A stretch of DNA of 63,907 nucleotides from a virus. Taxonomy: Duplodnaviria; Caudoviricetes. How positions within the stretch are numbered: the stretch's first letter is position 1; every line of letters starts with the position of its first letter. The DNA is taken from IMG/VR virus record IMGVR_UViG_3300021598_000858, positions 1 through 63,907 of that record; one strand, 5' to 3'. The notes below the pieces were generated by a model that did no database searches, had not been told where the DNA came from, and saw nothing but the letters and a program-made list of their open reading frames with translations. The position numbers were made by a program, and so were the translations under genes. Of this stretch, positions 2,561 to 46,814 are shown in pieces.

Positions 2561-4148
2561 CTACCTAGAAAAGAACGGCGAGGTGGACACTTCTACGGAA
2601 GGCATGGTCATATCTAGGGTCAGGGACACGGCTATAGCCAAACTATCCGCATAATCGTCGTGGGCGTGGGCTTCGTCAGGGGAAGTTAGGTCCAGTAAAT
2701 TTAGTTTCCAAGTCTGTCATTTGTTGGTAAAAGCGTTTCCATGTGCGCAGTCTTCTAGTCTTTGCGTGAGCAGGCCAGCCAATCATTCGTCTGTCAATTA
2801 GAGCTTTTAGATGTTTCCAACGCTTAGATTGCTCGGGTTGGCTGCTGTTTAGGGCATGAACCTCTGCTCTTGGGAGGAGGAGTTTGAGTCGTTGAGCAAC
2901 TGCATCACCAACACCATTAGCGTCCACGCCAACAGCAAGTACGTCGTAATTCCCCAAAAAATTCGTGATTTGAAAATACTGGTCTTCCCAATCATCGCCT
3001 TGTAACTCCAACCAATTAAGGACACGGTGGTCAAAATACCCAAACTCATCTGGGCGGTCCCAATCTACCCAGACAACGGTAACAACAGTAGAGTCAAGTT
3101 TACGGGCTGGGTCAATCCCAACTACAACTGGGGAACGGTGCCAGGCTTTAACTGTCTCTTGAGATGTGTCTCCAAGTTCGTCCATGATTGCAGAGGTAAC
3201 GAACATTCCTCTTTCAAGTAGCCACTTACAGTTATAAGACATCTGAAACTCATCAGAGTCTTCTCCGATACGTAGCATCTCTTTCTTTATGAACTTTGCG
3301 TAGTTAGCGTTGTACTTAGAGACATCTTTGTAGTCCCACTCAAAGTGGTTCATACGAACAGACCTTGCTGTCTGTCTGCGTTTATTTAATTGGATAGAGC
3401 GATAAAAGTTATTTTTACTTGTAGTAGGGGTTCCCGTTTTAACCATGGTTCCTGAGTAGTAAGCCAACATAGGAGAGATTGATTTAGAGACTACAAAGTC
3501 ATCCGCTTCTTGACACTCATCAATAACAATAAGGTGAAAGGACTTAGACTCAATCTTTGCACGTGGGTTAGCAGTCATCATCATGAGGCTACTGCCTGAG
3601 TTTTTTAACTTTATCTGTCGTGTAACTCCAGGCACCTTACCCAGGCTATCGTCAATCTCTGGGTCGCCCATGATTTCTTGCGCTCGCTCGCTAGTAAGCC
3701 TATTAACAGTTCTACCAAATAGAGTTTCTACCTGACCTTCAACAGGAGCAAACATACCTACCCAAATACCATCTTTAAATTGACCAAGTAAATCTGGATA
3801 CATTTTTGCAAGGCGAGGTAATAGAACCATTAATGTAGCTACGGTGTTAGCAATAGTTTCTGATTTACCTGACTGACGTGCTGCGAGTGCTGTTATTTCT
3901 TCGCCGTCATTGATGATTACCGACTCAATGATGCGACGTGCTAAAGGCATTTGATATGGGTGCAACTCGTGCCCAACTAGGGCATTCATAAAAGTAATAG
4001 TTTTATCTATAAGCTTTTTAACAAATTCTTTGGAGAGCTCATCTAGTTCCTCTTCGGGCTCTTCTTGAGAAACCTCTTCTTCATCATCTAACTCATCGTC
4101 AGGAAAGAATTGGTCGTCTTCATCTTCTAGCACGTTGTAGTTCTCCAT
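2561..4148 (-). CDS. terL: Terminase large subunit; frame broken at ~2680
   Basis: Walker A ARQSGKS, Walker B IVIDE, coupling motif TGTP and nuclease GIDPA. The ORF stops at 2676, but the +1 frame 2680-2561 encodes PDEAHAHDDYADSLAIA..., the conserved final nuclease motif. Confidence 0.9.
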
Positions 4149-19185: not shown

Positions 19186-19478
19186 TATCGCCCCTTAATC
19201 CTTTTAATCTCTTTTTCTTTAGCCTGTTTTTGATTACGCATACCTGCAGTAAAGCGTTTCATATGGTCTGCGCTAACAGGGCCAAGGGTGTCCTTTCTTG
19301 GGTCAAATGCTGGACCAGCTGTTGCAGCTCTTTCAGCCCCAGTACGACCAGTGTTGTAGTCATACTCGGTAAGCTCTGCACCAGTCATATTGCGACGCTT
19401 AGTAGCTTCGCCAAGCTGTTGTGCAAGTGCAGATTTATGAAGTTCTGTAAGGTCATCACCTTTACGATAAATAGGCAT
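19185..19478 (-). CDS. Hypothetical protein
   Basis: 97-aa ORF coupled on both sides. Confidence 0.5.
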   Translation of the reverse strand: MPIYRKGDDLTELHKSALAQQLGEATKRRNMTGAELTEYDYNTGRTGAERAATAGPAFDPRKDTLGPVSADHMKRFTAGMRNQKQAKEKEIKRIKGR

Positions 19479-19768
19479 TATTTATCATTCTCCTTCTTGC
19501 CTGCACGGCGCTTATTTTCTTTAGCTGTATTTTTACCATGCTTTAACGCTCTTAAGTTTCCTTTAGAATCGTTGTTATGGTTATTATCTTTATGGTCAAC
19601 ATCTGTTCCTCGGGGTAGTTTTCCGTTCTTCGATTCATAGTCGGCGCGAGCCTTATTCTTCGAAGTGGTAACCCATTTACCGCCTACTTTTTTCTTGTAG
19701 ACGTAGATAGGACGACCTCCATTCTCTTTGGAGCCTTTATAAGGTCCAAATTTCTTAGTAGTTGCCAT
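19478..19768 (-). CDS. HNH endonuclease-like protein
   Basis: DVDHKDNNHNND..NL...HGKN. Confidence 0.7.
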   Translation of the reverse strand: MATTKKFGPYKGSKENGGRPIYVYKKKVGGKWVTTSKNKARADYESKNGKLPRGTDVDHKDNNHNNDSKGNLRALKHGKNTAKENKRRAGKKENDK

Positions 19769-21796: not shown

Positions 21797-21897
21797 TTAT
21801 CCACAGGTTTAACCCTGGGGGGTGTGGATATGTGGATAAAAATGTTATCAAACTGAGACCAACTACGCTTGCGCTTGATAGGGCTATCACATATGTT
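21797..21897 (+). promoter_or_regulatory. Module 1 control region: DnaA boxes, GTTAT half-site and sigma-A-like promoter
   Basis: TTATCCACA 21797-21805, TGTGGATAT 21823-31, TGTGGATAA 21831-39, GTTAT 21844, TTGCGC-N17-TATGTT 21869-21897. Confidence 0.7.
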
Positions 21898-22596: not shown

Positions 22597-22602
22597 CAGG
22601 AC

Positions 22603-22632
22603 AGGCCCGCGACTTCCCCCGCGGGCCTTTTC
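22603..22632 (+). terminator. Intrinsic terminator
   Basis: AGGCCCGCG-loop-CGCGGGCCT then TTT. Confidence 0.8.
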
Positions 22633-22663
22633 TTATTTAGGGATGCCATACCCAAAGCCATGC

Positions 22664-22676
22664 TTGTTTGTGTTGG
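22664..22676 (+). repeat. Left half-site of the module-junction repeat
   Basis: TTGTTTGTGTTGG with no matching right arm. Confidence 0.7.
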
Positions 22677-22715
22677 CCCGCCCACCCCGTTCTATTGGGA
22701 GTTAGTTAGAGAGCC

Positions 22716-22791
22716 TGTGGATAACTAGGCGCAAATCGTTATCATTTTGTAATCGTGTGCGCTTGGTGTTGTCGGTGTTGTAGTGTAGTTT
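22716..22791 (+). promoter_or_regulatory. Module 2 control region
   Basis: TGTGGATAA-N13-GTTAT-N6-GTAAT, then TTGGTG-N17-TAGTTT. Confidence 0.75.
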
Positions 22792-22839
22792 TATCTCATA
22801 AGCGCAAGGGGCGCTTATAAGTTAGGAAAGAAGGTTGTT

Positions 22840-22980
22840 ATGTCAAAGTGTGGAGTTTGCGATACCTCAGAGAATATCGTGTTCTCAGGTGTTGATGCTT
22901 TCATTCTAGAATGTATGGAGCAGATTGAGCGCATTTGCTACGATTGCGCCAACGAGCAGAGGGCAAAGGTGTCCGCATGA
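22840..22980 (+). CDS. Small Zn-finger protein (46 aa)
   Basis: Read by hand: MSKCGVCD...ICYDCANEQRAKVSA*. Confidence 0.55.
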   Translation: MSKCGVCDTSENIVFSGVDAFILECMEQIERICYDCANEQRAKVSA

Positions 22981-23204
22981 TGTTTTACAATGGTTTCAAT
23001 CTAATGATTGACCTAATCCTTGCGGGCGTTGTTGGTTTCTTCGCTTATCGCTCAGGTTGGTTTCGTGGATATAGTGAAGGACAAGCGGACGCGGTCTGTG
23101 ATGATTGCGAGCGCATGGCTAAACTTGAGGCTGAGTATGCCTATGACTCATGGATTGAGTCACGCATTGAGGAAGACTTGGAGGCAAAGCATGGCATCAA
23201 CTAG
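22977..23204 (+). CDS. Small membrane protein
   Basis: ATGA overlap; MMFYNGFNLMIDLILAGVVGFFAY TM segment. Confidence 0.6.
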   Translation: MMFYNGFNLMIDLILAGVVGFFAYRSGWFRGYSEGQADAVCDDCERMAKLEAEYAYDSWIESRIEEDLEAKHGIN

Positions 23205-23373
23205 ATGGCACCGCGCAACCTACAAGGCGCACGCTGAGGTTATCAAGCAACTAATGAACCCAGCAAATGAGGAAGTATTAAAGAAGGTTGCCTATGAGTT
23301 GGCGATTATCTACGGCGCGGATAACGCTAACTTTCAAAGGGATAAGTTTCTCACCGCTTGCGGTGTGAAGTAA
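23191..23373 (+). CDS. Small hypothetical protein
   Basis: GGAGG RBS; ends DNANFQRDKFLTACG, a pattern common in small early phage proteins. Confidence 0.65.
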   Translation: MASTRWHRATYKAHAEVIKQLMNPANEEVLKKVAYELAIIYGADNANFQRDKFLTACGVK

Positions 23374-23389
23374 CAACCCCCTAACCAAC

Positions 23390-23414
23390 CAGCCCCCGCA
23401 GATTGCGGGGGCTG
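23390..23414 (+). terminator. Terminator hairpin
   Basis: CAGCCCCCGCA-GAT-TGCGGGGGCTG. Confidence 0.75.
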
Positions 23415-23417
23415 AGT

Positions 23418-23508
23418 TGTTTGTGTTGGGCTGCTTATGGCTCTGGGCTGGACTAGCAACTTGCGTTATAGCTAGTCCTAGTGCCCAATAAGCAGCCCAA
23501 CACAAACA
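23418..23508. repeat. Module-junction long hairpin A
   Basis: 21-bp perfect outer stem TGTTTGTGTTGGGCTGCTTAT/ATAAGCAGCCCAACACAAACA, 5-nt left bulge, inner stems. Confidence 0.9.
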
Positions 23509-23516
23509 TGCGGGCC

Positions 23517-23554
23517 TGTGGATAACTGTAGAGAAAACGTTATGAAAATGTTAT
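23517..23554 (+). promoter_or_regulatory. Module 3 control region
   Basis: TGTGGATAA-N13-GTTAT-N6-GTTAT. Confidence 0.8.
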
Positions 23555-23584
23555 GCAGAGAATGAGATAGTACTAGCGCTCCCT

Positions 23585-24601
23585 ATGATAGGCTGGCCAT
23601 TGATAGGCACCCGCCTATCCTTATGCGAAAGGGGAGAATCCCTACGTGGCGCTCCTGCATGGCATGGGTTAGCAAATGCAACTTTTGACGTGGACGCGGA
23701 TATTACTACCGCTGACATGCTCAAGGGCGCATTGCTTAATGACTGGAATGTACGTCTTGAGCCAGTCATCTATCCTGCAGACTATCGCGCAAAATCCGCG
23801 CTCAACTATGTTGTGCGTACTAATCCCGTCGACGCTGGCATTGACGTGCTCTCCGTCGTAGGTGACCGCTATTCCGTATTCCAAAATGAGGACCTCTTCA
23901 ATTTTGGTGACAATATTTTGGACGGTGGCGCCAAATGGGAATCCGCGGGCTCAATCAAGGACGGCCGAATTGTATTCGGTAGCCTAGTTGTACCTCGCGA
24001 ATTCATTCTAGACCCGCAAGGCGTCGCTGATAAGACTGTCACTTATTTATTGGTGCACTCTTCACATGACGGTAGCGCCAGTGTTCAGGCGTCAATTACA
24101 CCTGTGCGCGTCGTATGCCAAAACACGCTGAACATGGCGTTAAAGTCCACTAAGCAATCTTTTAAAGTCCGTCACACTTTAAAAGTTGAGGGACGCGTCG
24201 CTGAGGCCCGCCGTGTGCTAGGCCTAACATTCAATCACATGGACGAATTCGAAACCATGGCGAAAGCCCTATTCGAAACGTCAATTGACAATGTCCAATG
24301 GGGTAAGTTGCTCACCGCTATATATCCGCTGGACGATAACGCGCCAAAAGGCACCGTCACTAAGCATGCGCAAAAAATCGATATCTTGAATGATTTATAT
24401 TTCAAGGCGCCTACTCAAGACGGAATCCGTGGCACCGCATGGGGCGCACTTAATGCGCTTACTGAGCGTCTGGACTATTTCCGTCCATCTCGCACCGCCA
24501 ATGGCGAGGCAATCAAGGCAGCAGCCAGTGGATTTGATGCCATGGTAAATGCCGAAAAGGCCCGCATTCTATCCGCGGTCCGCGAATTCGCTAACGCGTA
24601 A
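23585..24601 (+). CDS. DUF932/DUF945-family phage/plasmid protein; true start codon missing
   Basis: PAWHGL, V.GD.Y...QN, ESAGS...G..VF, YLL..SSHDGS, TPVRVVCQNTL, RHT, GTAWGALNALTE..D. Confidence 0.8.
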   Translation: MIGWPLIGTRLSLCERGESLRGAPAWHGLANATFDVDADITTADMLKGALLNDWNVRLEPVIYPADYRAKSALNYVVRTNPVDAGIDVLSVVGDRYSVFQNEDLFNFGDNILDGGAKWESAGSIKDGRIVFGSLVVPREFILDPQGVADKTVTYLLVHSSHDGSASVQASITPVRVVCQNTLNMALKSTKQSFKVRHTLKVEGRVAEARRVLGLTFNHMDEFETMAKALFETSIDNVQWGKLLTAIYPLDDNAPKGTVTKHAQKIDILNDLYFKAPTQDGIRGTAWGALNALTERLDYFRPSRTANGEAIKAAASGFDAMVNAEKARILSAVREFANA

Positions 24602-24616
24602 CACGCGAAAGCCCCC

Positions 24617-24643
24617 GAGCCCCTGGCCCTAGGCCAGGGGCTC
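24617..24643 (+). terminator. Terminator hairpin
   Basis: GAGCCCCTGGCC-CTA-GGCCAGGGGCTC. Confidence 0.8.
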
Positions 24644-24646
24644 TCT

Positions 24647-24727
24647 TGTTTGTGTTGGGGCTATATATGAGCTTATGGGCAGGGTAGTTGTCTTTTCCTG
24701 CCCATATATATAGCCCCAACACAAACA
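24647..24727. repeat. Module-junction long hairpin B
   Basis: Outer stem TGTTTGTGTTGGGGCTATATA, 6-nt left bulge, inner stem TATGGGCAGG/CCTGCCCATA. Confidence 0.9.
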
Positions 24728-24732
24728 TTGCC

Positions 24733-24770
24733 TGTGGATAAGTGAGAAGAAATCGTTATAGAGATGTTAT
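24733..24770 (+). promoter_or_regulatory. Module 4 control region
   Basis: TGTGGATAA-N13-GTTAT-N6-GTTAT; TTGCGT at 24780. Confidence 0.8.
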
Positions 24771-24848
24771 CTAATAGGCTTGCGTTAGACAAGGAGTGAT
24801 GATTAGATAGTCCTATCGGAGATACCGATACAAGAGAAAGGGGCTTTT

Positions 24849-25244
24849 ATGGCTACCACCATAAAGGTAGATAGAGTAGTGCTAGTAGAGGCACTAAAGA
24901 AAAAGTTGGCAGAGCAGGATAAACTGCGTGCTGAGTATAAGAAAGCAGAAGAAAAATACAAGAAAGAACAAGAAGCCTTCGCTACTAAGGTTATTGCTCT
25001 TGCTAAGTCGGGGAAGTTAGAAATCGCCAGCACCAACTATCGCAGTTGGTCAGGAAGGTTGGAAATCGAGTTCAATGTTGATAAGACTCAAATCCCTGCC
25101 GAACCAAAGAACCCACAGACACCAGACGGGTGGCTTCACGATAGTGATTACCAAGAACTTGATAGGACTATCAAGTTGCTCGGTATGACCAGCGACCCAA
25201 GCGTTCCTACGAGCGTCTATAAGTCAGTAGCACAATGGCTCTAA
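24849..25244 (+). CDS. Hypothetical protein
   Basis: 131 aa, GAAAGGGG RBS, coiled-coil N-half; sole gene of its module. Confidence 0.75.
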   Translation: MATTIKVDRVVLVEALKKKLAEQDKLRAEYKKAEEKYKKEQEAFATKVIALAKSGKLEIASTNYRSWSGRLEIEFNVDKTQIPAEPKNPQTPDGWLHDSDYQELDRTIKLLGMTSDPSVPTSVYKSVAQWL

Positions 25245-25261
25245 AATAAGCCTAGCAAATG

Positions 25262-25287
25262 CCCCCGTGCCAAGCACGGGGGTTTTT
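25262..25287 (+). terminator. Intrinsic terminator
   Basis: CCCCCGTGC-CAA-GCACGGGGG-TTTTT. Confidence 0.85.
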
Positions 25288-25370
25288 GTTTGTGTTGGGC
25301 TGTCTGGCTGGCTATTTACTAGTCTTTCTACTAATGTTTTAGTAGAAAGCCAGACAGCCCAACACAAACA
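25287..25370. repeat. Module-junction long hairpin C
   Basis: Outer stem TGTTTGTGTTGGGCTGTCTGG, 16-nt left bulge, inner stem CTTTCTACTAA/TTAGTAGAAAG. Confidence 0.9.
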
Positions 25371-25379
25371 TCGGCAGCC

Positions 25380-25455
25380 TGTGGATAACTTCCCTGGAAT
25401 TGTTATCAAATCTTTATCAACGAGAGTAGAGATTACCGCGTTCTTAATATAGATT
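25380..25455 (+). promoter_or_regulatory. Module 5 control region
   Basis: TGTGGATAA-N13-GTTAT-N6-TTTAT; TAGATT at 25450. Confidence 0.75.
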
Positions 25456-25501
25456 AGCCCATGTAAGAGAAAGCCTCTTACAGAAAGAGGGGGACTACCC
25501 G

Positions 25502-25984
25502 ATGATTACAACGCCTGACGGTGTGAACATCTACACCGACCAAGACGTCCAAGAGAAGGTCGCAGAGGCTAAGACTACTGCAACCGACTCAGCAAACAGA
25601 TATACCAACCTACGTATCGCTGGTGTTGTTGAGACAACATTCAAGTCAGAGGTGCGCGAAGGTAACATGGAGGAAGACTATGCGGTCGGACTCTACAATA
25701 ACCTTGCTTCACAACTAGATTGGAGCACCATTGACAACCTCAGCGTTAAATACACAGCAACCGTCTATGCGTTCGACGACGAACTATTCACAATCAACGA
25801 CATTGAGGCAGACGACGAGCAAAGTGCTGAACAGTCCATTTGGGACGACCTTAATATCTCAAACGTTCGTCTTTCATTCGACGTCGAGGCAAATGGGGAA
25901 GGCGGTTACTTTAAAGGTGACGTCTATGACCTTGACGACTTCATCAACGATAACATCAAGATAGAGGTTACCGAACAGGATTAG
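25502..25984 (+). CDS. Acidic hypothetical protein
   Basis: 160 aa, strongly Asp/Glu-rich, GAGGGGG RBS; sole gene of its module. Confidence 0.75.
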   Translation: MITTPDGVNIYTDQDVQEKVAEAKTTATDSANRYTNLRIAGVVETTFKSEVREGNMEEDYAVGLYNNLASQLDWSTIDNLSVKYTATVYAFDDELFTINDIEADDEQSAEQSIWDDLNISNVRLSFDVEANGEGGYFKGDVYDLDDFINDNIKIEVTEQD

Positions 25985-26000
25985 TCCCCCGACTAATACG

Positions 26001-26035
26001 ATAGGCTTGGCGTTCATGGGCGCCAAGCCTATTTT
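26001..26035 (+). terminator. Intrinsic terminator
   Basis: ATAGGCTTGGCG-loop-CGCCAAGCCTAT-TTT. Confidence 0.8.
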
Positions 26036-26119
26036 GTTTGTGTTGGGCTTGCTTGGCTATTAGTAGCTTTTATTGCTGGCAGGCCTGCCTGCCAGCAGCC
26101 AAGCAAGCCCAACACAAAC
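26035..26119. repeat. Module-junction long hairpin D
   Basis: Outer stem GTTTGTGTTGGGCTTGCTTGGC, 16-nt left bulge, inner stem TGCTGGCAGG/CCTGCCAGCA. Confidence 0.9.
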
Positions 26120-26133
26120 CTTATCGTGTGTCC

Positions 26134-26209
26134 TGTGGATAACTTCCTTCATATCGTTATATAAATGTTATAGAGAATCCTTGCTACCGCGACCGCGCCG
26201 TAGTAGAGT
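26134..26209 (+). promoter_or_regulatory. Module 6 control region
   Basis: TGTGGATAA-N13-GTTAT-N6-GTTAT, then TTGCTA-N17-TAGAGT. Confidence 0.8.
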
Positions 26210-26237
26210 GAGAGCACTCTCAAAGAAAGGGGAGAAT

Positions 26238-26744
26238 ATGTCTATGACGACAGAGGAGAGGAAATACCGCTTCTCAGAGATAATGACGGCTATTCATCTT
26301 ATCGCAGATGAACCCGAGGATATATCAGAGTTCCGACTTCCTAATGGAACGAAAGGACTATCAGACGGCAGACTAAAGAGTGCGATTATGTGCCAAGTAT
26401 TCAAAGAGGACGAGGAGTTCTCCGCGAGGCTTGTCAATGCGCTCGCTTCTACCGCTATGGAACGAGCAAATGAAGGCAATAAGCCTACGCGTGATGATAT
26501 GTCAGCGTTGTCTATTGCTATCCACACCTGTTGGGGTGTTGGCGCTTTTACACCACTACTAGCCTTACTAGGTGTTACTGGTAAGGTTGCCGAGGCTTTT
26601 GATGTCGAAGTTCCCGAGGAAATAAGCCTAGTGTTCCGTCCAAATGCTTTTGCCAAGAAGTTCGGCGAGTTCAATCCTCTCGATATGTGTGATGAGGATA
26701 AAGACGACGAAACCTACAATGCGATACTAGGTGGTGATAAGTAA
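26238..26744 (+). CDS. Hypothetical protein
   Basis: Start MSMTTEE after GAAAGGGGAG. The ORF-track extension upstream runs through the hairpin and promoter. Confidence 0.7.
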   Translation: MSMTTEERKYRFSEIMTAIHLIADEPEDISEFRLPNGTKGLSDGRLKSAIMCQVFKEDEEFSARLVNALASTAMERANEGNKPTRDDMSALSIAIHTCWGVGAFTPLLALLGVTGKVAEAFDVEVPEEISLVFRPNAFAKKFGEFNPLDMCDEDKDDETYNAILGGDK

Positions 26745-27265
26745 TGGGTATGGACGTAATGGGTAATAACCCTATCAGCGAGCGCGGTGAGTACTTCCGC
26801 AACAATGTGTGGTGGTGGCGACCTCTATGGGATTACTGTTGTTATGTAGATAGTAGTCTTGGCGAGCGCGTACCTTATGGGCACTCTAACGACGGCGACG
26901 GTCTAAAGACGGCAGAGGAGTGCCAAGCACTAGCAAGGTTATTGTTAGAGAAACTTGAAAACGGCGAGGCGCTCGCTTATATCAAGGAACGAGATAAGGC
27001 TATCGCCGAGTTAGAGTGGGATACCTGCCGTCTATGTGAAGGTAGTGGTATCCGTACCGATAAGGTTGGCGTTGAAGGCGGTATGCCCGATAAAGAATTA
27101 CCTGAGGACATAGCACTCTTAGTAGGTAGGACGAAGGGTACTTGTAATGGTTGCCGAGGGTTCGGAAAAACCGAGCCTTGGGAGAGCCATTATCCGTTGA
27201 ACGAGGAGAACATTAGAGAGTTTGCAGGCTTCCTGCAAGACTGTGGTGGATTCTCTATCTGCTAA
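26744..27265 (+). CDS. Hypothetical protein with DnaJ-type CxxCxGxG Zn motifs
   Basis: MGMDV..., YFRNNVWWWRPLW, CRLCEGSG, CNGCRGFG, F..DCGGFSIC*. Confidence 0.75.
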   Translation: MGMDVMGNNPISERGEYFRNNVWWWRPLWDYCCYVDSSLGERVPYGHSNDGDGLKTAEECQALARLLLEKLENGEALAYIKERDKAIAELEWDTCRLCEGSGIRTDKVGVEGGMPDKELPEDIALLVGRTKGTCNGCRGFGKTEPWESHYPLNEENIREFAGFLQDCGGFSIC

Positions 27266-27279
27266 GTTCCCCTTTCTCT

Positions 27280-27322
27280 AGTAAGCCTATCGCTGATACC
27301 CTTGGCGATAGGCTTACTTTTT
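27280..27322 (+). terminator. Intrinsic terminator
   Basis: AGTAAGCCTATCGC-loop-GCGATAGGCTTACT-TTTT. Confidence 0.85.
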
Positions 27323-27371
27323 GTCACTCTCCGCCGCCGAGTGCTACTTGCGAGTAACTTCGGCGCGGAAA

Positions 27372-27481
27372 TGTTTGTGTTGACCCACCCATCTTATATT
27401 AGATTACCCACCCTATTTGAAGGCCCTTGCGGGCCTACTCCGCATATTGGCCATAGGCTTTAGCCTATGGCCAACACAAAC
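27372..27481. repeat. Module-junction element E (degenerate, branched interior)
   Basis: TGTTTGTGTTG at 27372 and CCAACACAAAC at 27471, enclosing two small hairpins. Confidence 0.75.
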
Positions 27482-27722
27482 CCTGTGGCGCATATCACAA
27501 GAGAGCAACGGCGTGTCGGCTTGACTAGCCGAGAGAGTTAGGCTACTGCCACGACGAGAGATAGGCTTATTAGGCTTATTAGGCGTAAGGCCAGACCTAC
27601 GGCTAGGGTCGAGAGAGCCGTATATGATAAGAGAGCGTAGGCCTATCCCACCCTTCCTTCCCTCTCTCTCTATATAACAAGAGATAACCCTATTACCGCG
27701 CCGTCGGGGGCATAGAAGGGGT

Positions 27723-27760
27723 TGTGGATAAGTAAGAGAAAATCGTTATACAAACGTTAT
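27723..27760 (+). promoter_or_regulatory. Module 7 control region
   Basis: TGTGGATAA-N13-GTTAT-N6-GTTAT upstream of the AAA+/VWA operon. Confidence 0.8.
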
Positions 27761-27853
27761 CAAAATAGAGCCTTCGGGAGTGGAATTAAATACGGAAATA
27801 GGCTTAGATAGGAACTAGGCAACAAGGCCTACAAGAAGGGAAACCCGAACCAA

Positions 27854-29311
27854 ATGTCACTCGCACTACTCGTCGTATCAGACGACCAACTCGAGGGCTT
27901 ACCTGCCCAAGCGCAGACACTCATCTTATCCGACGATACCGAGGTATATACATACCACCGCGTATCGAACGGCATGAAAGGTCGAGGTCAGGCGTGGAAG
28001 CAAGTATCACCCGCACAACTACCAAACAACCCTATCTCTCATGAACCATGCGCAGTAGTCTTATCAGACCGCGACCGCGACATGATGAAACTAGGTCAGA
28101 TTACCAATGTCGGTATCAAGGTGTTATACGCACTAGAAACAACTCCTACCGCAACCGCGCCCGAGGCGCACAATGAGGTCGCAGGTAGCCTTATCGCTCG
28201 ACTAGAAATCGGTGACAATAGCCTTAACGACTACATCACCGACAAGCGCCGTAACCAAGGTGTATCTATTAGGCCTATCGTGAAAGGTGTTGATACGCCT
28301 ATCGCGCAAGTAGCACAAGTGGCAGAGGTCGCTACTAAGGTTATCGTCGAAACCCCACGACCAACCTTATCGCTCGTAAATGCCATGGTAAGCGTACCCG
28401 ACAAGAAATGGGCAGAGGCTTATATCAACCGCAAGTTCAAAGCCGACGACCGCGATATCACAGACTTCGAAATCTATGATTACGCAAGGGAAAACGCCAT
28501 GAACGTTCTAATTGAAGGTCACGCAGGAAGCGGTAAGACTATGAGCGTTCAAGCATACGCAAGCGCTCGAGGCATGCGTTACTTCAACGTCGCATGTCAT
28601 ATCGGGCTAGAAGCCTCTCACCTAATCGGTCGTTGGATACCAACCGCCGACGGTCACTTCAAATGGCAAGACGGCGCAGTTACAGAGATAGTTCGTAACG
28701 GTGGCGTACTCCTATTTAACGAGATTAACTTCATGCCCGAGCGCCTATCAACGTTCATATTCTCACTCGTTGATTACCGCCGAGAAATCCAAATCATGGA
28801 AAACAATGGTGAGGTTATCAAGGCTCACCCTAACCTTATTATCTTAGGTGACATGAACCCCGACTATCGCGGTACTCGACCACTCAACCAAGCGTTCGCA
28901 GACCGATTCTCAATAAGATTATCGTTCCCATACGATAAGGCTATCGAGAGCAAACTTCTCAAGTGTAAAGCGCTCGTTGAAATGGCAAACCAACTACGCG
29001 ACGAGTTCAATAAGGGTACGCTCGCTACTCCTATCTCAACTCGTTCTCTCGTAGCGTTCGTGACTAACGCAAAGACGTTAGGCATGGAGTTCGCTATCAA
29101 TAACTACATCAACTCCTTCGAAGGTGATGAGGAACGCTCGGCGGTACGGTTGGTAGTCAATACTCACCGCGACAATATCGCAGAGGAATTAGGGTTAGCG
29201 GTACTTTCAATTAAGACCGACGAAACTAAAGTAGAAATGCTAGAGGATAACCTTACTAGCAACTCAACTACTTTTAATATCCCTATCACCAACCATACGG
29301 CGGTAATCTAA
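27854..29311 (+). CDS. MoxR/CbbQ-NorQ-type AAA+ ATPase
   Basis: GHAGSGKT, F.WQDG, LLFNEIN (Walker B variant), MNPDYRGTRPLNQAFADRF, ISTR. Confidence 0.85.
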   Translation: MSLALLVVSDDQLEGLPAQAQTLILSDDTEVYTYHRVSNGMKGRGQAWKQVSPAQLPNNPISHEPCAVVLSDRDRDMMKLGQITNVGIKVLYALETTPTATAPEAHNEVAGSLIARLEIGDNSLNDYITDKRRNQGVSIRPIVKGVDTPIAQVAQVAEVATKVIVETPRPTLSLVNAMVSVPDKKWAEAYINRKFKADDRDITDFEIYDYARENAMNVLIEGHAGSGKTMSVQAYASARGMRYFNVACHIGLEASHLIGRWIPTADGHFKWQDGAVTEIVRNGGVLLFNEINFMPERLSTFIFSLVDYRREIQIMENNGEVIKAHPNLIILGDMNPDYRGTRPLNQAFADRFSIRLSFPYDKAIESKLLKCKALVEMANQLRDEFNKGTLATPISTRSLVAFVTNAKTLGMEFAINNYINSFEGDEERSAVRLVVNTHRDNIAEELGLAVLSIKTDETKVEMLEDNLTSNSTTFNIPITNHTAVI

Positions 29312-31227: not shown

Positions 31228-31273
31228 GCGCGGTGGGCTACCCCTTCCCCCCACCGCGCTTATCAACACAAAC
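31228..31273 (+). repeat. Hairpin followed by a right half-site of the junction repeat
   Basis: GCGCGGTGGG/CCCACCGCGC, then CAACACAAAC at 31264-31273. Confidence 0.55.
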
Positions 31274-32820: not shown

Positions 32821-33243
32821 GTGCAGACGTTCTTACCGCTTCCTGACTTCAAAGAGAGCGCTCGAGTTCTTGACGATAAGAGATTAGGTAAGCAGAGAGT
32901 TGAAGCCTATCAAGTCATGCGTGTATTAGCGGGCATGACAAAAGGTTGGCGCAACCACCCCGCCGTTCTTATGTGGAGAGATTACGAGGGCGCGTTGTAT
33001 GAGTACGGCCGATTAGTTTGTGTCGAGTGGCGCGAACGTGGCTTCAATGATTCCCTATTGGAAGCCTTCCCCAAAGATAAGGTAGTATTACCACCATGGC
33101 TAGGTTACGACGAGTTCCACACTTCGCACCAAGCCAACTTAGTCAGGAAATTACCCGAGCATTATCGTAAGTACTTTCCCGAAGTAGATGAACACTTGCC
33201 CTACTATTGGCCTACAAAGGAGACAACATGGCTAGAAAAATAG
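32821..33243 (+). CDS. Pyrimidine-dimer DNA glycosylase-like protein (T4 DenV / MSMEG_6728 family)
   Basis: MQTFLP...SA..LD.KRLGKQRVEA.Q...GWRNHPAV.MW...PPWLG...H.SH..NL.RK...Y.WP. Confidence 0.85.
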   Translation: MQTFLPLPDFKESARVLDDKRLGKQRVEAYQVMRVLAGMTKGWRNHPAVLMWRDYEGALYEYGRLVCVEWRERGFNDSLLEAFPKDKVVLPPWLGYDEFHTSHQANLVRKLPEHYRKYFPEVDEHLPYYWPTKETTWLEK

Positions 33244-36533: not shown

Positions 36534-38000
36534 TTACTCTTCGATGGCACCCTTGATTATTTGAGTGGTTTGCTCCTCATTTAACCCGCCATTTGGCAAC
36601 TCTCTAAGTGCTTGAGCCTTGTCTCCGAAGATAGAACTTAGCACACCAGCGCTGCCTTGTCGCTCTACCGTCATGCGAATAAACTCACGAGAATCGTCCA
36701 ATTCTTTTGTTGTTTTGATTAATTTAAACAGGCGGTCTATCTCCTGAGAAACGTTAGGGTCAGCATATCCACCATTCATTTCTTCAGCAAAACGCATAAA
36801 AGCAACTCTTTGGCCCTGCATTTCTATAACAGCATTAATTAAAGCCTTAAGTTGTTCTTTACTCTTTACCTCTACTGGTAACTTAAAAGCACACATAGAT
36901 TGAGGTTTAAAAGCGGGGCAGTTAGCGGCTACAAAACAGGTGTCACATGCCCTAAGTGAAGTGCTATGGGATGAAACTGTGGTGACATCTTTAATGACGC
37001 CATCGGCATCAATTTCACTCTTTGTATCAAATCCAAAGACGGGAAGATTGGCGTATTCGTCAGCATTTCGTGGTTCAAGTTTCCGTGTATGAATACCCTT
37101 ATTATCATATACGGCAGGTGGGGTTTCCCCACTTTGCTCCACTTCTCTCCCCTCACTATTATCATATAACAGCGGGTCATCTGGGCTATTGGTCATCTTG
37201 TTCATCCTTATCTCGAACTGCTCATAAGACCACACCGCTAACTTACAGACTTCCTGCGGGTCATCCTCGATTATCTTATCAATGTCCAAGCCAGCCTTTT
37301 CGTAGATTGCCTTGTACCTTGGGCGTGCTTGTTCCTTCATCTTCTTTGGATAACGAACTAGTCTAGTGCCATCCCAAATGATTGTTTCACCGTGCATCAT
37401 CGGTGAAAGCCACGATAAGGTGCTGGCACTTTCAAATATAATAGAACGCAGGTTGTCAGGTTTGGCACACCCTAATGCATGCCACCTGGTCCCTTCCCGC
37501 TTGCTGTGTAGGCGGGTAGCGCTGGCAAGTCTGCTATCTATCTCAATAGCGTCTCCTGGGATAGCGATGTCCAAATAGTAGTCAACTAGCCTTTGAAGCC
37601 CATTTAAATCGGTCTGTGGTTGCCATACAGGAATGAACTTACCTGGTGGTAGCTCGGACCATACCTTCTGTCTGTGGCTCTCTACCCAAGCTGGGTCAAT
37701 GGTGGGGCTGTTAATCTCAAATACGGTATTGAGCCTATCTATATTAACGGCTACGAAATGTTCGTACCCTGCGGCAAACTCTTCGAGCTCATCAGCTGAC
37801 AGCTTCAGGGTTTTAGGTAAGCCTGGGTGTACATAAATATAGAAATCTTTATTAAAGTAATTTTCTAATAGATACTCTTTGGTCTTAGGTAGACCGCGGC
37901 TCACCAGGCGATGGTAGCTGACGCCAACGTGGTTGGCGGTTGTCTCTTCAAGAATTACTCTATTTGAAGGTACCTCAGCGCCTAAATAGACAATTTTCAC
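36534..38000 (-). CDS. Conserved phage protein: TGT/DpdA-like N-terminal region, Cys cluster, helical C-terminus
   Basis: PVW, IAIP, WHALG, FESASTLSW...G pattern; CDTC...CP...C. Confidence 0.45.
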   Translation of the reverse strand: MKIVYLGAEVPSNRVILEETTANHVGVSYHRLVSRGLPKTKEYLLENYFNKDFYIYVHPGLPKTLKLSADELEEFAAGYEHFVAVNIDRLNTVFEINSPTIDPAWVESHRQKVWSELPPGKFIPVWQPQTDLNGLQRLVDYYLDIAIPGDAIEIDSRLASATRLHSKREGTRWHALGCAKPDNLRSIIFESASTLSWLSPMMHGETIIWDGTRLVRYPKKMKEQARPRYKAIYEKAGLDIDKIIEDDPQEVCKLAVWSYEQFEIRMNKMTNSPDDPLLYDNSEGREVEQSGETPPAVYDNKGIHTRKLEPRNADEYANLPVFGFDTKSEIDADGVIKDVTTVSSHSTSLRACDTCFVAANCPAFKPQSMCAFKLPVEVKSKEQLKALINAVIEMQGQRVAFMRFAEEMNGGYADPNVSQEIDRLFKLIKTTKELDDSREFIRMTVERQGSAGVLSSIFGDKAQALRELPNGGLNEEQTTQIIKGAIEE

Positions 38001-44464: not shown

Positions 44465-44965
44465 CTATTCTATTTCAATAGTTTTAGCTTTCTTAGCCTC
44501 TGGGATAATGCGCTCCAGGGCTATGGTTAGAAAACCGTCCTCCAGCTTTGCTCCTTTGACAACCACGTCGTCTGATACAGCGAAGCGTTGTAAGAAAGTG
44601 CGGCCAGCGATGCCTTTGTAGGCATAGGTTGCGGAGTCATCATCAGCTCTTTCTCCGCTGACTGATATGACATTTTCTTTGTACTCTATATTAATTTCTG
44701 ACCTTTTAAAGCCCGCAACGGCAATCTGAATCTCAGCTTTGTCATCGGGTAGGGTCACGATGTTGTAAGGCGGGTATGTTGATTTAACCCTGAGGTCCTC
44801 TAACTGTCTAAACATATCTAAATGTCTATCAAAACCAAAGGTCCACGGTTGCAACATACTATTTAATGTTGCAAATGGGTCCTGGGTTTGAGGAAAGATT
44901 TCCTTGTTATAGTTTATTTTTGGGGCGTCGTTTCCGCGCCATTGAATTGGGTAGCCTGAAGCCAT
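44465..44965 (-). CDS. Small heat-shock protein (Hsp20/IbpA-like)
   Basis: YPPYNI, IAVAGF, YKGIA.R.F...F, A.LEDGFLTI.LER.IPE..K...I.I. Confidence 0.92.
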   Translation of the reverse strand: MASGYPIQWRGNDAPKINYNKEIFPQTQDPFATLNSMLQPWTFGFDRHLDMFRQLEDLRVKSTYPPYNIVTLPDDKAEIQIAVAGFKRSEINIEYKENVISVSGERADDDSATYAYKGIAGRTFLQRFAVSDDVVVKGAKLEDGFLTIALERIIPEAKKAKTIEIE

Positions 44966-46074: not shown

Positions 46075-46264
46075 AATTAGATAGGACGTTATTGGCTATC
46101 TCTATGTAAATATGAGCGTTCACTATAAGGTCCTCTGGATGGTGTAGCTCGCCTGCTTTTCCTGGCCAATTACTTTTTAAATAATCATGTAAACCAGGGG
46201 TCAGTTTGCTCATGAACTCATCGATTGTAAGGTATCCATGAGCTCTTAAATGTTTATTATCCAT
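46043..46264 (-). CDS. Hypothetical protein
   Basis: 73 aa overlapping its neighbours. Confidence 0.5.
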   Translation of the reverse strand: MDNKHLRAHGYLTIDEFMSKLTPGLHDYLKSNWPGKAGELHHPEDLIVNAHIYIEIANNVLSNFGTIACDKKH

Positions 46265-46814
46265 TGTCTTTCTTTTGCTCTAGGATTAAGAAGGGGCCTG
46301 AAGTATACACATCTAAGTCTTCTGCTATCTGCAGCGCTTTTTCAATAGGCGCACCCGCATGAAGAGCTCCTAATGCATACCCTGAACCATTACCAACGCC
46401 GTAGAAACCTGTCTCTGCTTGACAGACTGATAGGTCTTCGCTGACATCAAATATCTCACCATTAACAGCAATTAAGAAATGAAAACGTTGTCCTTTGTCA
46501 TTCTTTGGACGCTCTTCATCAAAGTTATATCCATTGTTCTTTAAACAATCTCTTAAAGATGGAATTAATTTAGATATAACAAAGTGGTATGTGTCAGTCT
46601 TGTCTTTGGCGGTCATCTTTGGGGGTTTCCACAGATGCTGGGCAATATCACATGCTCCAACCTCACCTGCACCAGCTAACAACACGCCGTTTGCCAACTG
46701 AGATATCTTTACCATGTTCTTATGTCTGAAGATACGACCATCATCATCTGTTACTTGATTATCCGCACCTAAAACACACTTGTTTCTATGTTGTACGCCA
46801 ACAATCGTTGTCAT
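46257..46814 (-). CDS. Proteasome-beta/HslV-like Ntn peptidase
   Basis: N-terminal MTTIVG, LGAD.QVT, conserved Lys, GVGNGSGYALGAL, D.YTSGP. Confidence 0.8.
   Translation of the reverse strand: MTTIVGVQHRNKCVLGADNQVTDDDGRIFRHKNMVKISQLANGVLLAGAGEVGACDIAQHLWKPPKMTAKDKTDTYHFVISKLIPSLRDCLKNNGYNFDEERPKNDKGQRFHFLIAVNGEIFDVSEDLSVCQAETGFYGVGNGSGYALGALHAGAPIEKALQIAEDLDVYTSGPFLILEQKKDNG

Follow-up and report, generated by a model that had tools for sequence, protein, structure and literature searches.

Perfectly paired palindromes with shared end sequences occupy gene-cassette boundaries in a group of freshwater tailed phages

Among described systems, the closest counterparts of the elements reported here are the promoter early stem-loops (PeSLs) of T4-type phages. 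According to two reports on them (PMC2839356, PMC4122927), PeSLs are composite terminator and promoter motifs that lie between small non-essential early genes and occupy every boundary of a plastic region, wherein the insertions, deletions and replacements that distinguish relatives end in the motif, and no dedicated recombinase is known. The same reports describe a short stem-loop that is itself the terminator, promoter sequence of ~100 bp that provides the homology, and mini-circles that arise by recombination between flanking motifs, as demonstrated by inverse PCR. The general arrangement, the location of the exchanges and the lack of a known recombinase are shared with a family of long palindromes that was recognized in IMG/VR virus record IMGVR_UViG_3300021598_000858, a stretch of 63,907 nucleotides that is analysed here in its entirety and is referred to as the window (63.9 kb, the whole record, with an estimated completeness of 66%). 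We favour the view, albeit with less than even confidence, that these palindromes are DNA-level foldable junctions for cassette exchange, which resemble PeSLs but are differently built.

Several other known elements share part of this appearance. Repetitive extragenic palindromic (REP) sequences and REPINs with their RAYT proteins, as well as miniature inverted-repeat transposable elements (MITEs) such as Correia, are intergenic hairpin repeats of ~100 nt with conserved inverted ends that are often found beside terminators. These elements are bacterial, dispersed, present in many near-identical copies and dependent on a Y1 transposase. The RNase III sites of T7 early mRNA and lambda sib form a double-stranded stem of two turns with an asymmetric internal loop, located between or after phage genes. 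Non-canonical pairs are allowed in these stems, which lack a long invariant base sequence, and the T7 sites lie within one long transcript. The injection-stop region of phage T5 (10.1101/866236) is a pre-early, untranslated region with consensus DnaA boxes (TTATCCACA) and inverted repeats or palindromes, and is conserved more strongly than the neighbouring genes; the injection-stop role is a hypothesis in the source paper itself. According to the same source, this is one complex region in the terminal repeat with fixed 52-bp spacers, whereas the phage in the window has one palindrome per gene boundary.

A sequence-only reading of the window had reported four hairpins with inverted ends of 13 bp, and the 13-mer and its complement were found exactly where it had placed them. 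The fourth copy has a different outermost base at its right end and is therefore taken to span 26035-26120. The four palindromes and their degenerate relatives in the window are as follows.

23418-23508: palindrome 1, 91 nt, with a 21-bp basal stem, a 5-nt bulge in the 5' arm and an apical stem
24647-24727: palindrome 2, 81 nt, with a 22-bp basal stem, a 6-nt bulge in the 5' arm and an apical stem
25287-25370: palindrome 3, 84 nt, with a 23-bp basal stem, a 16-nt insertion (or mini-hairpin) in the 5' arm and a 9-bp apical stem
26035-26120: palindrome 4, 86 nt, with a 22-bp basal stem, a 16-nt bulge in the 5' arm and a 10-bp apical stem
27372-27482: long variant, 111 nt, in which the same end boxes pair over 10-11 bp only (z of -5.2)
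22665-22677, + strand: half-site, left end box only with one mismatch, followed by a GCCCGCCCACCCC stretch that resembles the left end of the long variant
31263-31273, - strand: half-site, right end box only with one mismatch, immediately after a terminator-like stem

When up to two mismatches are allowed, the 13-mer occurs 13 times in the window against 2.05 expected, and none of 100 shuffled sequences reaches 13. Folding of the + strand as single-stranded DNA gives the four copies -32.6 to -39.4 kcal/mol (z of -9.2 to -11.8), a stability that is equalled in none of 200 shuffles, and the - strand behaves in the same manner. The basal stem of 21-23 bp comprises the 13 conserved pairs plus the 8-10 unique and perfectly paired positions that had been described for each copy, and the one-sided bulge was also correctly recognized, given that it is confined to the 5' arm (5, 6, 16 and 16 nt in copies 1-4). 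Beyond the bulge there is a unique second stem of 9-11 bp. The earlier statement that the copies share only the 13-mer is slightly too strict, as the left arms have G/T-rich themes (GGCT repeats) in common; orthologous hairpins in relatives have bulge sequence in common as well. The degenerate copies that had been reported are the last three entries above, and GTTGGGC/GCCCAAC is found, as noted previously, in copies 1, 3 and 4, with GTTGGGG in place of GTTGGGC in copy 2.

Pattern scans of IMG/VR yielded 17 and then 42 loci, and the window plus loci L001-L043 provide 104 elements, of which 95 are unique. Element interiors range from 59 to 142 nt while the base sequence is invariant, and the interiors are unique within each genome, such that there has been no copy burst. 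In five phage records, four of which are 99-100% complete, the exact-pattern copies (2-5 per record) form a single cluster of ~1.4-4.8 kb, and a reversed-pattern control gave no matches in these five records. The same pattern scan over 185,579 prokaryote species produced one match (L018), in line with a chance expectation of about one (596 Gb x 31 spacings / 4^22). This match was rejected as a clue to the host, given the chance expectation and the fact that it lies on a GC-rich contig of a metagenome-assembled genome with no homologues of seven cassette proteins. On the basis of these scans, the hairpin family is phage-specific.

A match to a described Rfam or REP family, which by the account of the sequence-only reading would have refuted it, was not found. 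Only three tRNAs in the whole window pass the Rfam gathering thresholds. A search in E-value mode yields 10 hits for the hairpins, mostly to animal microRNA precursors, with scores of 21.7-38.7 bits where the thresholds are 37-100. In the literature text searched, the box strings occur solely as unrelated primers, and topic searches uncovered no description of such elements other than that of PeSLs.

That the pairing is under constraint and not due to chance, as had been proposed, is evident from several characteristics. The perfect basal stems of the 95 unique elements are bimodal in length, with 8-12 bp in 39, 18-26 bp in 56 and 13-17 bp in none. In variable columns 13-21, the arms of the same element pair at 94% of positions, compared to 38% on average and at most 46% with shuffled partners (1000 shuffles); because these elements were preselected for a perfect stem of at least 17 bp, only the shuffle comparison and the bimodality are free of selection. 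The pair statistics of the 95 elements were calculated on end-anchored, gap-free columns. Among the 56 long-stem elements, the 574 pairs of the variable part are all Watson-Crick, with no wobble before the first interruption, and the 39 short-stem elements all remain below 17 bp when G-T or A-C pairs are allowed. Even the ‘invariant’ ends covary. Column 8 has changed from T:A to C:G (GTGCTGG/CCAGCAC) in nine unique elements with no uncompensated case, and distant phages carry the boxes GTTTGGGTTGG or TTGTTGAGTTGG, each with a matching partner. At columns 9 and 11 of the end boxes, single mismatches of the two wobble types are equally frequent.

The covariation that had been predicted, and whose absence among homologues would have refuted the sequence-only reading, is also found within ortholog groups. 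In 20 tight groups (78% threshold), 634 paired positions consist of 582 invariant, 15 fully compensated, 6 G-T only, 4 A-C only and 27 otherwise non-canonical cases, and unpaired positions of the same groups vary at 64 of 457. At a looser threshold of 70% there are 54 compensated changes, divided into 27 transitions and 27 transversions. Judged from these alignments, the pairing constraint is DNA-like, in that it is strictly Watson-Crick and lacks a wobble signature. On both strands, G+T makes up 87% of the 5' arm and A+C makes up 87% of the 3' arm, and thus neither arm is able to fold on itself.

Comparisons between relatives reveal three kinds of exchange that are bounded by the end boxes. 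The order of cassettes is permuted, with the cassette for a DUF932 protein located before a cassette for a protein of 131-140 aa (family F13) in the window, L012, L003 and L009, and after it in L007 and L016; L011 has yet another order, and L016/L028 have an extra cassette with its own hairpin. The interior of a palindrome can be replaced. Loci L051 and L044 are ~97-100% identical over ~250 nt on each side of the first hairpin. Between the boxes they diverge along the whole length, with 9-nt insertions that match each other in the two arms, and each version is fully paired. Finally, a whole element can be present or absent. Loci L012 and L003 have 99.95% and 99.87% identity over 3,673 and 6,082 bp, and their sole gap is an indel of 114 nt that comprises the long element, except for the outermost base of its left box, and a further 8 nt; the target duplication is at most 1 nt. 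Relative to the window, the indel of the long element is 110 nt and the flanking repeat is at most 1 nt. Beside the right box of the long element, L012 carries a near-tandem 7-nt repeat at 3780-3795 (CCTGCGG CCTGTGG) that is present as a single copy in the window and that could be a scar of insertion or excision.

Long variants (window positions 27382-27417, L009 positions 328-443 and L002 positions 2339-2454) carry CCCACCC repeats. In the window, the interior of this variant has two CCCACCC pairs and two local hairpins, and in the window and L007 the two pairs flank a loop or hairpin of 19-36 nt. The opposite strand of the repeats in L009 and L002 has runs like GGGTGGGTGGGTGGG, which is a classic G-quadruplex-forming pattern.

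The genes of the window are nearly all on the - strand, except for a + strand island at ~21.9-33.5 kb, and all of the hairpins in the window are inside the first 5 kb of this island. They occupy a fixed place at the cassette boundaries, wherein a stop codon is followed by the intrinsic terminator, the palindrome, a regulatory block that contains a perfect DnaA-box 9-mer, the core promoter, a hairpin of the 5' untranslated region and the ribosome site. The corresponding features are listed here, with the word CCTGTGGATAA(C), which contains the reverse complement of the consensus DnaA box TTATCCACA, designated the D-box.

22603-22628, + strand: intrinsic terminator with a 9-pair stem and a T-rich tail, which closes the island's first + strand transcription unit
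23390-23414, + strand: intrinsic terminator whose T-rich tail enters the left box of palindrome 1
24617-24643, + strand: intrinsic terminator
25261-25283, + strand: intrinsic terminator
26000-26033, + strand: intrinsic terminator
27280-27318, + strand: intrinsic terminator
21797-21807, - strand: D-box copy in the divergent control region, where 21822-21838 was also noted
22714-22724, + strand: D-box block CCTGTGGATAA, followed by a CGTTAT-N5-TGTAAT array
23515-23525, + strand: D-box block
24731-24741, + strand: D-box block
25378-25388, + strand: D-box block
26132-26142, + strand: D-box block
22840-23373, + strand: cassette of three small open reading frames (ORFs; 46, 75 and 58 aa) with no family match
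23645-24601, + strand: DUF932 protein cassette (PF06067, E 1e-51; phrog_1221)
24849-25244, + strand: 131-aa cassette, no family
25502-25984, + strand: 160-aa cassette, no family
26238-27265, + strand: two-gene cassette (168 aa and 173 aa), the 173-aa protein with two CxxCxGxG motifs

A terminator scan locates an intrinsic terminator 3-5 nt upstream of each of the four copies, with a T-rich tail that reaches into the left box. On the promoter side, at a distance of 3-12 nt, is the array CCTGTGGATAAC-N11/12-(C)GTTAT-N5/6-(T/G)TTAT, and the D-box 11-mer has six copies in the window against 1.05 expected. Among 57 canonical members with flanking sequence, relaxed criteria detect a terminator-like hairpin with a T-run on exactly one side in 44, on both sides in three and on neither side in 10, and strict criteria place a terminator beside 47 of 97 elements. 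In 27 of the 44 members with a one-sided terminator, a D-box in sense orientation is located no more than 60 nt away on the opposite side. In L097 and L010 the D-boxes are instead located between the terminator and the hairpin, and other sub-lineages combine different promoter-side repeats with the same hairpin ends. Thus, the hairpin belongs with the 3' end of a cassette and not with one type of promoter. The D-box may be a site for DnaA or a phage regulator and not a -35 element, and its assignment as a -35 element is uncertain. GTTAT words occur ~17 and 28 nt after the D-box word, and relatives have D-boxes as tandem or inverted pairs on either side of the hairpin.

Core promoters appear to lie 45-70 nt beyond the D-box blocks. 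A consensus scan of the + strand flagged only 22718-22745 and 23562-23589, the latter being one of these putative core promoters, and those at 24780-24809 and 26181-26209 were called by eye; RNA contigs begin 15-31 nt past both by-eye promoters. A promoter composed of the TTGTGT/TTGTTT word of the box and a TATTA-like word of the bulge was also considered by eye and rejected, because the spacing suits some long-bulge copies, the short-bulge copies are without the word, and the scan finds none. The operon after the long element (AAA_5 ATPase and vWA protein) is preceded at 27483-27535 by TGTGGCGCATATCACA and then GGCGTGTCGGCTTGAC, and the L010 lineage has the word GGCGTGTCG at all of its cassettes, which suggests that there may be two promoter classes.

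Contigs from four metatranscriptomes are separate for each cassette (22814-23380, 23640-24615, 24824-25227, 25473-25990 and 26240-27132). None of those listed bridges a hairpin, and one ends at 26047, which is 12 nt inside the left arm of copy 4. These are contigs and not reads, and they give only a weak hint that the hairpins are absent from abundant RNA; stretches without contig cover (the hairpins and 27350-28500) are not to be read as untranscribed. One contig, from run X16, has 16 listed differences from the window within 67 nt (23003-23069), where the other runs are identical. The variation is at the strain level and is clustered in one cassette gene, namely the second small ORF of the first cassette. 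In the 173-aa cassette protein (26744-27265, + strand), CRLCEGSG and CNGCRGFG resemble the zinc-finger repeats of DnaJ, with no Pfam match.

The arrangement just described corresponds to that of PeSLs in that terminators lie upstream of the four copies, a promoter-side block lies downstream and the RNA contigs are separate per cassette. Likewise, the differences between relatives end in the motif, whether these are permuted order, replaced interiors or the 114-nt indel. However, the window phage has, between an ordinary terminator and the promoter-side block, a separate perfect palindrome of 60-140 nt with fixed ends of 11-13 bp. A strong sigma-70 consensus early promoter in each repeat is also missing, as the scan flags two + strand sites only, and the window phage is unrelated to T4, whereas PeSLs are carried by T4-type phages.

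We also surveyed the palindrome slot in wider relatives by anchoring on the DUF932 gene, which gave 80 loci with 52-98% identity, of which 79 were tabulated (L098 was left out) and 74 have enough downstream sequence. A G/T-rich perfect inverted repeat is located in the slot in 14 of these 74 loci, in some cases with the covaried boxes GTTTGGGTTGG and TTGTTGAGTTGG. A tRNA-Asp(GTC) occupies the slot in 39 loci and was confirmed in all five loci sampled (L077, L084, L106, L118 and L131), where it is found ~35-50 nt past the DUF932 stop codon. One locus has a tRNA-Trp and 20 have neither. Therefore, the palindrome is a lineage-specific addition that is not required by the cassette layout.

The window phage encodes a portal protein, large terminase, family A DNA polymerase (Pol A), DnaB helicase, SNF2 helicase, class II ribonucleotide reductase, RecA, a DnaG-type primase, a DnaC/IstB-like loader, a queuine-tRNA-ribosyltransferase-like protein and an Mre11-like phosphoesterase, and is a virulent tailed double-stranded DNA phage. 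A megablast search of positions 22600-27600 against cultured phages gave zero matches, and its Pol A has at most 40% identity to that of any cultured phage, the nearest being Streptomyces phages. Its DNA was detected in lake and freshwater metagenomes from 16 studies. GC skew has no origin-like switch at the hairpin cluster. The queuine-tRNA-ribosyltransferase-like gene (phrog_887; 36534-38000, - strand) adjoins the ribonucleotide reductase gene, and such genes accompany 7-deazaguanine DNA modification in other phages. Accessory genes at 44465-44965 (- strand), 46257-46814 (- strand), 32821-33243 (+ strand) and 19478-19768 (- strand) code for Hsp20, a proteasome-subunit-like protein, a pyrimidine dimer glycosylase of the T4 endonuclease V type and a 96-aa HNH_3 endonuclease.

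Of the three functions that the sequence-only reading had offered, that of a structure-specific recombination substrate fits best, because exchanges bounded by the boxes are observed. In the model that we tentatively prefer, the palindrome would fold as a hairpin on single-stranded DNA at a replication fork or gap, or as a cruciform, and stalling or breakage would be favoured at a boundary that carries the folded form. The end boxes, which are common to all boundaries and to related phages, would then act as homology and guide re-joining, either by template switching or by the phage's own RecA-type recombination. As a result, whole cassettes and hairpin interiors would be exchanged, lost or gained without damage to genes or signals, and such exchange would be the selected function of the palindromes and not a by-product. 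Complementarity of the arms would be maintained by use of one arm as the template for the other or by replacement of entire interiors, and not through slow pairwise point mutation. The presence of genes for RecA, the Mre11-like phosphoesterase, DnaB, primase and Pol A was counted in favour of this exchange model.

A number of observations weigh against it. Only one of 381 flank-matched comparisons reveals an empty site and 365 have an element of the same length, and so the elements are mostly stable; orthologous hairpins also persist across phages with 65-85% nucleotide identity. A homology of 11-13 bp is short for RecA-type recombination, and the idea of a shared homology tract is weakened by the coexistence of box variants in one genome, such as three in record G002. 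The nearest cassette-bearing relatives without hairpins have a terminator with tRNA-Asp or a terminator alone. No candidate for an enzyme that could read the boxes was found. Palindromes are inherently unstable, and the exchanges may be by-products of another function. A basal stem of two turns followed by an internal loop has the look of an RNase III substrate. Furthermore, large bulges (10 nt or more) are nearly always on the terminator-side arm, and this polarity counts against a purely symmetric cruciform role and points to a strand-specific reader such as RNA.

The polarity was assessed for 56 canonical elements that were oriented by their terminator. A pure 5'-arm bulge of 3-19 nt is present in 28, while 10 have more unpaired nucleotides on the 3' arm (mostly 1-7 nt), 10 form three-way junctions, six have a 1x1 loop and two have no second stem. 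One of the ten 3'-heavy elements, L004:9, is probably mis-oriented, as the locus begins only 8 nt before it, and its D-box puts it in the 5' class.

The main competing explanation is that the palindromes are insulators at the RNA level, which we consider possible though somewhat unlikely. Read-through RNA would fold into a stem of ~22 bp with an internal loop and be cut by host RNase III, or by RNase E at the A/U-rich bulge, which would leave the terminator hairpin on the upstream mRNA and uncouple the read-through part from the next cassette. This would account for the location immediately behind a terminator within an array of tandem, co-oriented cassettes, for a one-sided internal loop that is polar relative to transcription, and for an interior that is free to vary while it remains paired. 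The predicted basal stem of 18-26 bp in 56 of the 95 unique elements, with its asymmetric internal loop, is similar to the stem of ~20 bp or more of RNase III sites; the lack of an RNA contig that bridges a hairpin and the contig end at 26047 were counted in its favour, although both points are weak; and tRNA-Asp, another RNA that is processed endonucleolytically, is located in the same slot in 39 of the 74 relatives. However, an RNA-level constraint does not readily explain the complete lack of G-U among the 574 variable stem pairs, the wobble-type mismatches without strand bias, or the fact that half of the compensated changes are transversions. To our knowledge, RNase III does not need an invariant duplex sequence of 11-13 bp, and thus the base sequence would be unexplained, as would the retention of boxes by the 39 of 95 members that have no long stem. 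The upstream terminator should leave little RNA to process, and the host enzyme would be required because phage RNase III is missing from all five hairpin-bearing records (G000-G004). Unlike the known RNase III sites, the palindromes sit behind a terminator, are strictly Watson-Crick and have an invariant base.

In another explanation, an early phage regulator or a host protein would recognize the duplex formed by the boxes at the foot of an extruded hairpin or cruciform. Acting with the adjacent DnaA boxes, this protein would regulate early promoters, tether or titrate DnaA, or bring about a pause in DNA entry, the last of these having been proposed for the T5 injection-stop region. Recognition of a hairpin base agrees with an invariant base combined with an interior of 59-142 nt. 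Each copy has the perfect 9-mer TTATCCACA beside it, with a further one in the divergent control region near 21797, and the D-boxes on the other side of the hairpin in L097 and L010 would act as sites and not as a -35 element. A precedent is the pre-early region of T5, which has eight DnaA boxes within inverted repeats (10.1101/866236). Nevertheless, we judge this explanation unlikely. No candidate protein was found among the small neighbouring ORFs, which give only HNH_3, DUF6321 and distant MerR-type HTH matches. Box positions 8-9 vary within one genome if the partner compensates, which fits pairing better than base-specific reading, and some sub-lineages keep the hairpin with entirely different promoter-side motifs. 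The DUF932 protein was tried as a reader and rejected, since it is also present in relatives without hairpins; structure comparison finds no solved relative (best E 0.38), the Atlas gives only clusters of the same family, and the papers found that name DUF932 assign no function to it.

A mobile element or site-specific recombination site with a dedicated enzyme, such as an analogue of integron attC, a REPIN/RAYT pair, an IS200-type hairpin or a MITE, would also have inverted ends, a folded interior of variable length and a one-sided bulge. The one clean case of presence and absence is without target duplication, as would be expected of single-strand Y1 transposition. As with attC, the palindromes are located at the 3' ends of cassettes, have conserved inverted ends and an imperfectly symmetric interior of variable length, and gain polarity from unpaired bases on one arm (5' bulges of 5, 6, 16 and 16 nt in the window, and purely 5' in 28 of 56 members). 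The integron analogy that had been drawn nonetheless does not extend to membership. attC sites have RYYYAAC on the 5' side and GTTRRRY on the 3' side, whereas copies 1, 3 and 4 have GTTGGGC followed by GCCCAAC, a reversed order that holds on either strand; the stems are perfect and much longer; and each cassette here carries its own promoter block. An IntI-type enzyme is not encoded, as searches for tyrosine recombinase (PF00589), with a positive control that matched 14 of 14 genomes, and for serine recombinase and Y1 transposase (PF01797) all gave none in the five hairpin-bearing records. The similarity to REP sequences, REPINs and MITEs ends with the intergenic hairpin, its conserved inverted ends and the nearby terminators, whereas here interiors are unique within a genome with no copy burst, there is one cluster per genome, no target duplication exceeds 1 nt, and prokaryote genomes contain the pattern only at the chance level. 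We therefore regard a dedicated mobile system as very improbable.

Least probable of all, in our estimation, are the remaining suggestions of a single-strand promoter or priming signal of the Frpo or ssi type, or of a family of stable small RNAs. The long hairpins do have an unpaired A/T-rich bulge, often with TATTA-like words, and DnaA boxes are nearby. The proposal of an Frpo/ssi-like signal lacks support in view of the nature of the phage, which is a tailed double-stranded DNA phage with portal and terminase, of a consensus scan that places no promoter within a hairpin, and of short-bulge copies that have no -10-like word. Discrete RNAs of 80-90 nt, which had also been suggested, are likewise unsupported; there is no Rfam match, and the RNA contigs cover the flanking genes with none on a hairpin, which is a weak hint.

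A bolder extension of the exchange model, which we consider somewhat unlikely, is that lytic phages of this group run an integrase-free, integron-like system for the genes that they express first. Folded palindromes with a shared base sequence would be the joints at which promoter-gene-terminator cassettes are excised, traded between phages that infect the same cell, and inserted again. Either the replication and recombination machinery of the phage or a nuclease or joining protein with an unrecognised fold would act as the reader, and the arms would be kept perfect by arm copying.

It has long been asked how virulent phages shuffle their small early genes, many of which are presumed to act against host defences. 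Few concrete answers exist; PeSLs in T4-type phages are one of them, and the palindrome family offers a second, structurally different one in unrelated freshwater phages. It also provides unusually clean natural experiments, in which an element is present or absent at 99.9% identity or an interior is replaced between flanks that are ~97-100% identical. If the palindromes are true exchange joints, then they would define the units of gene flow in these phages and would in addition yield portable, insulated expression modules. If they are RNA-processing sites instead, then natural transcript insulators of a new class, marked by a conserved base sequence, would have been found.

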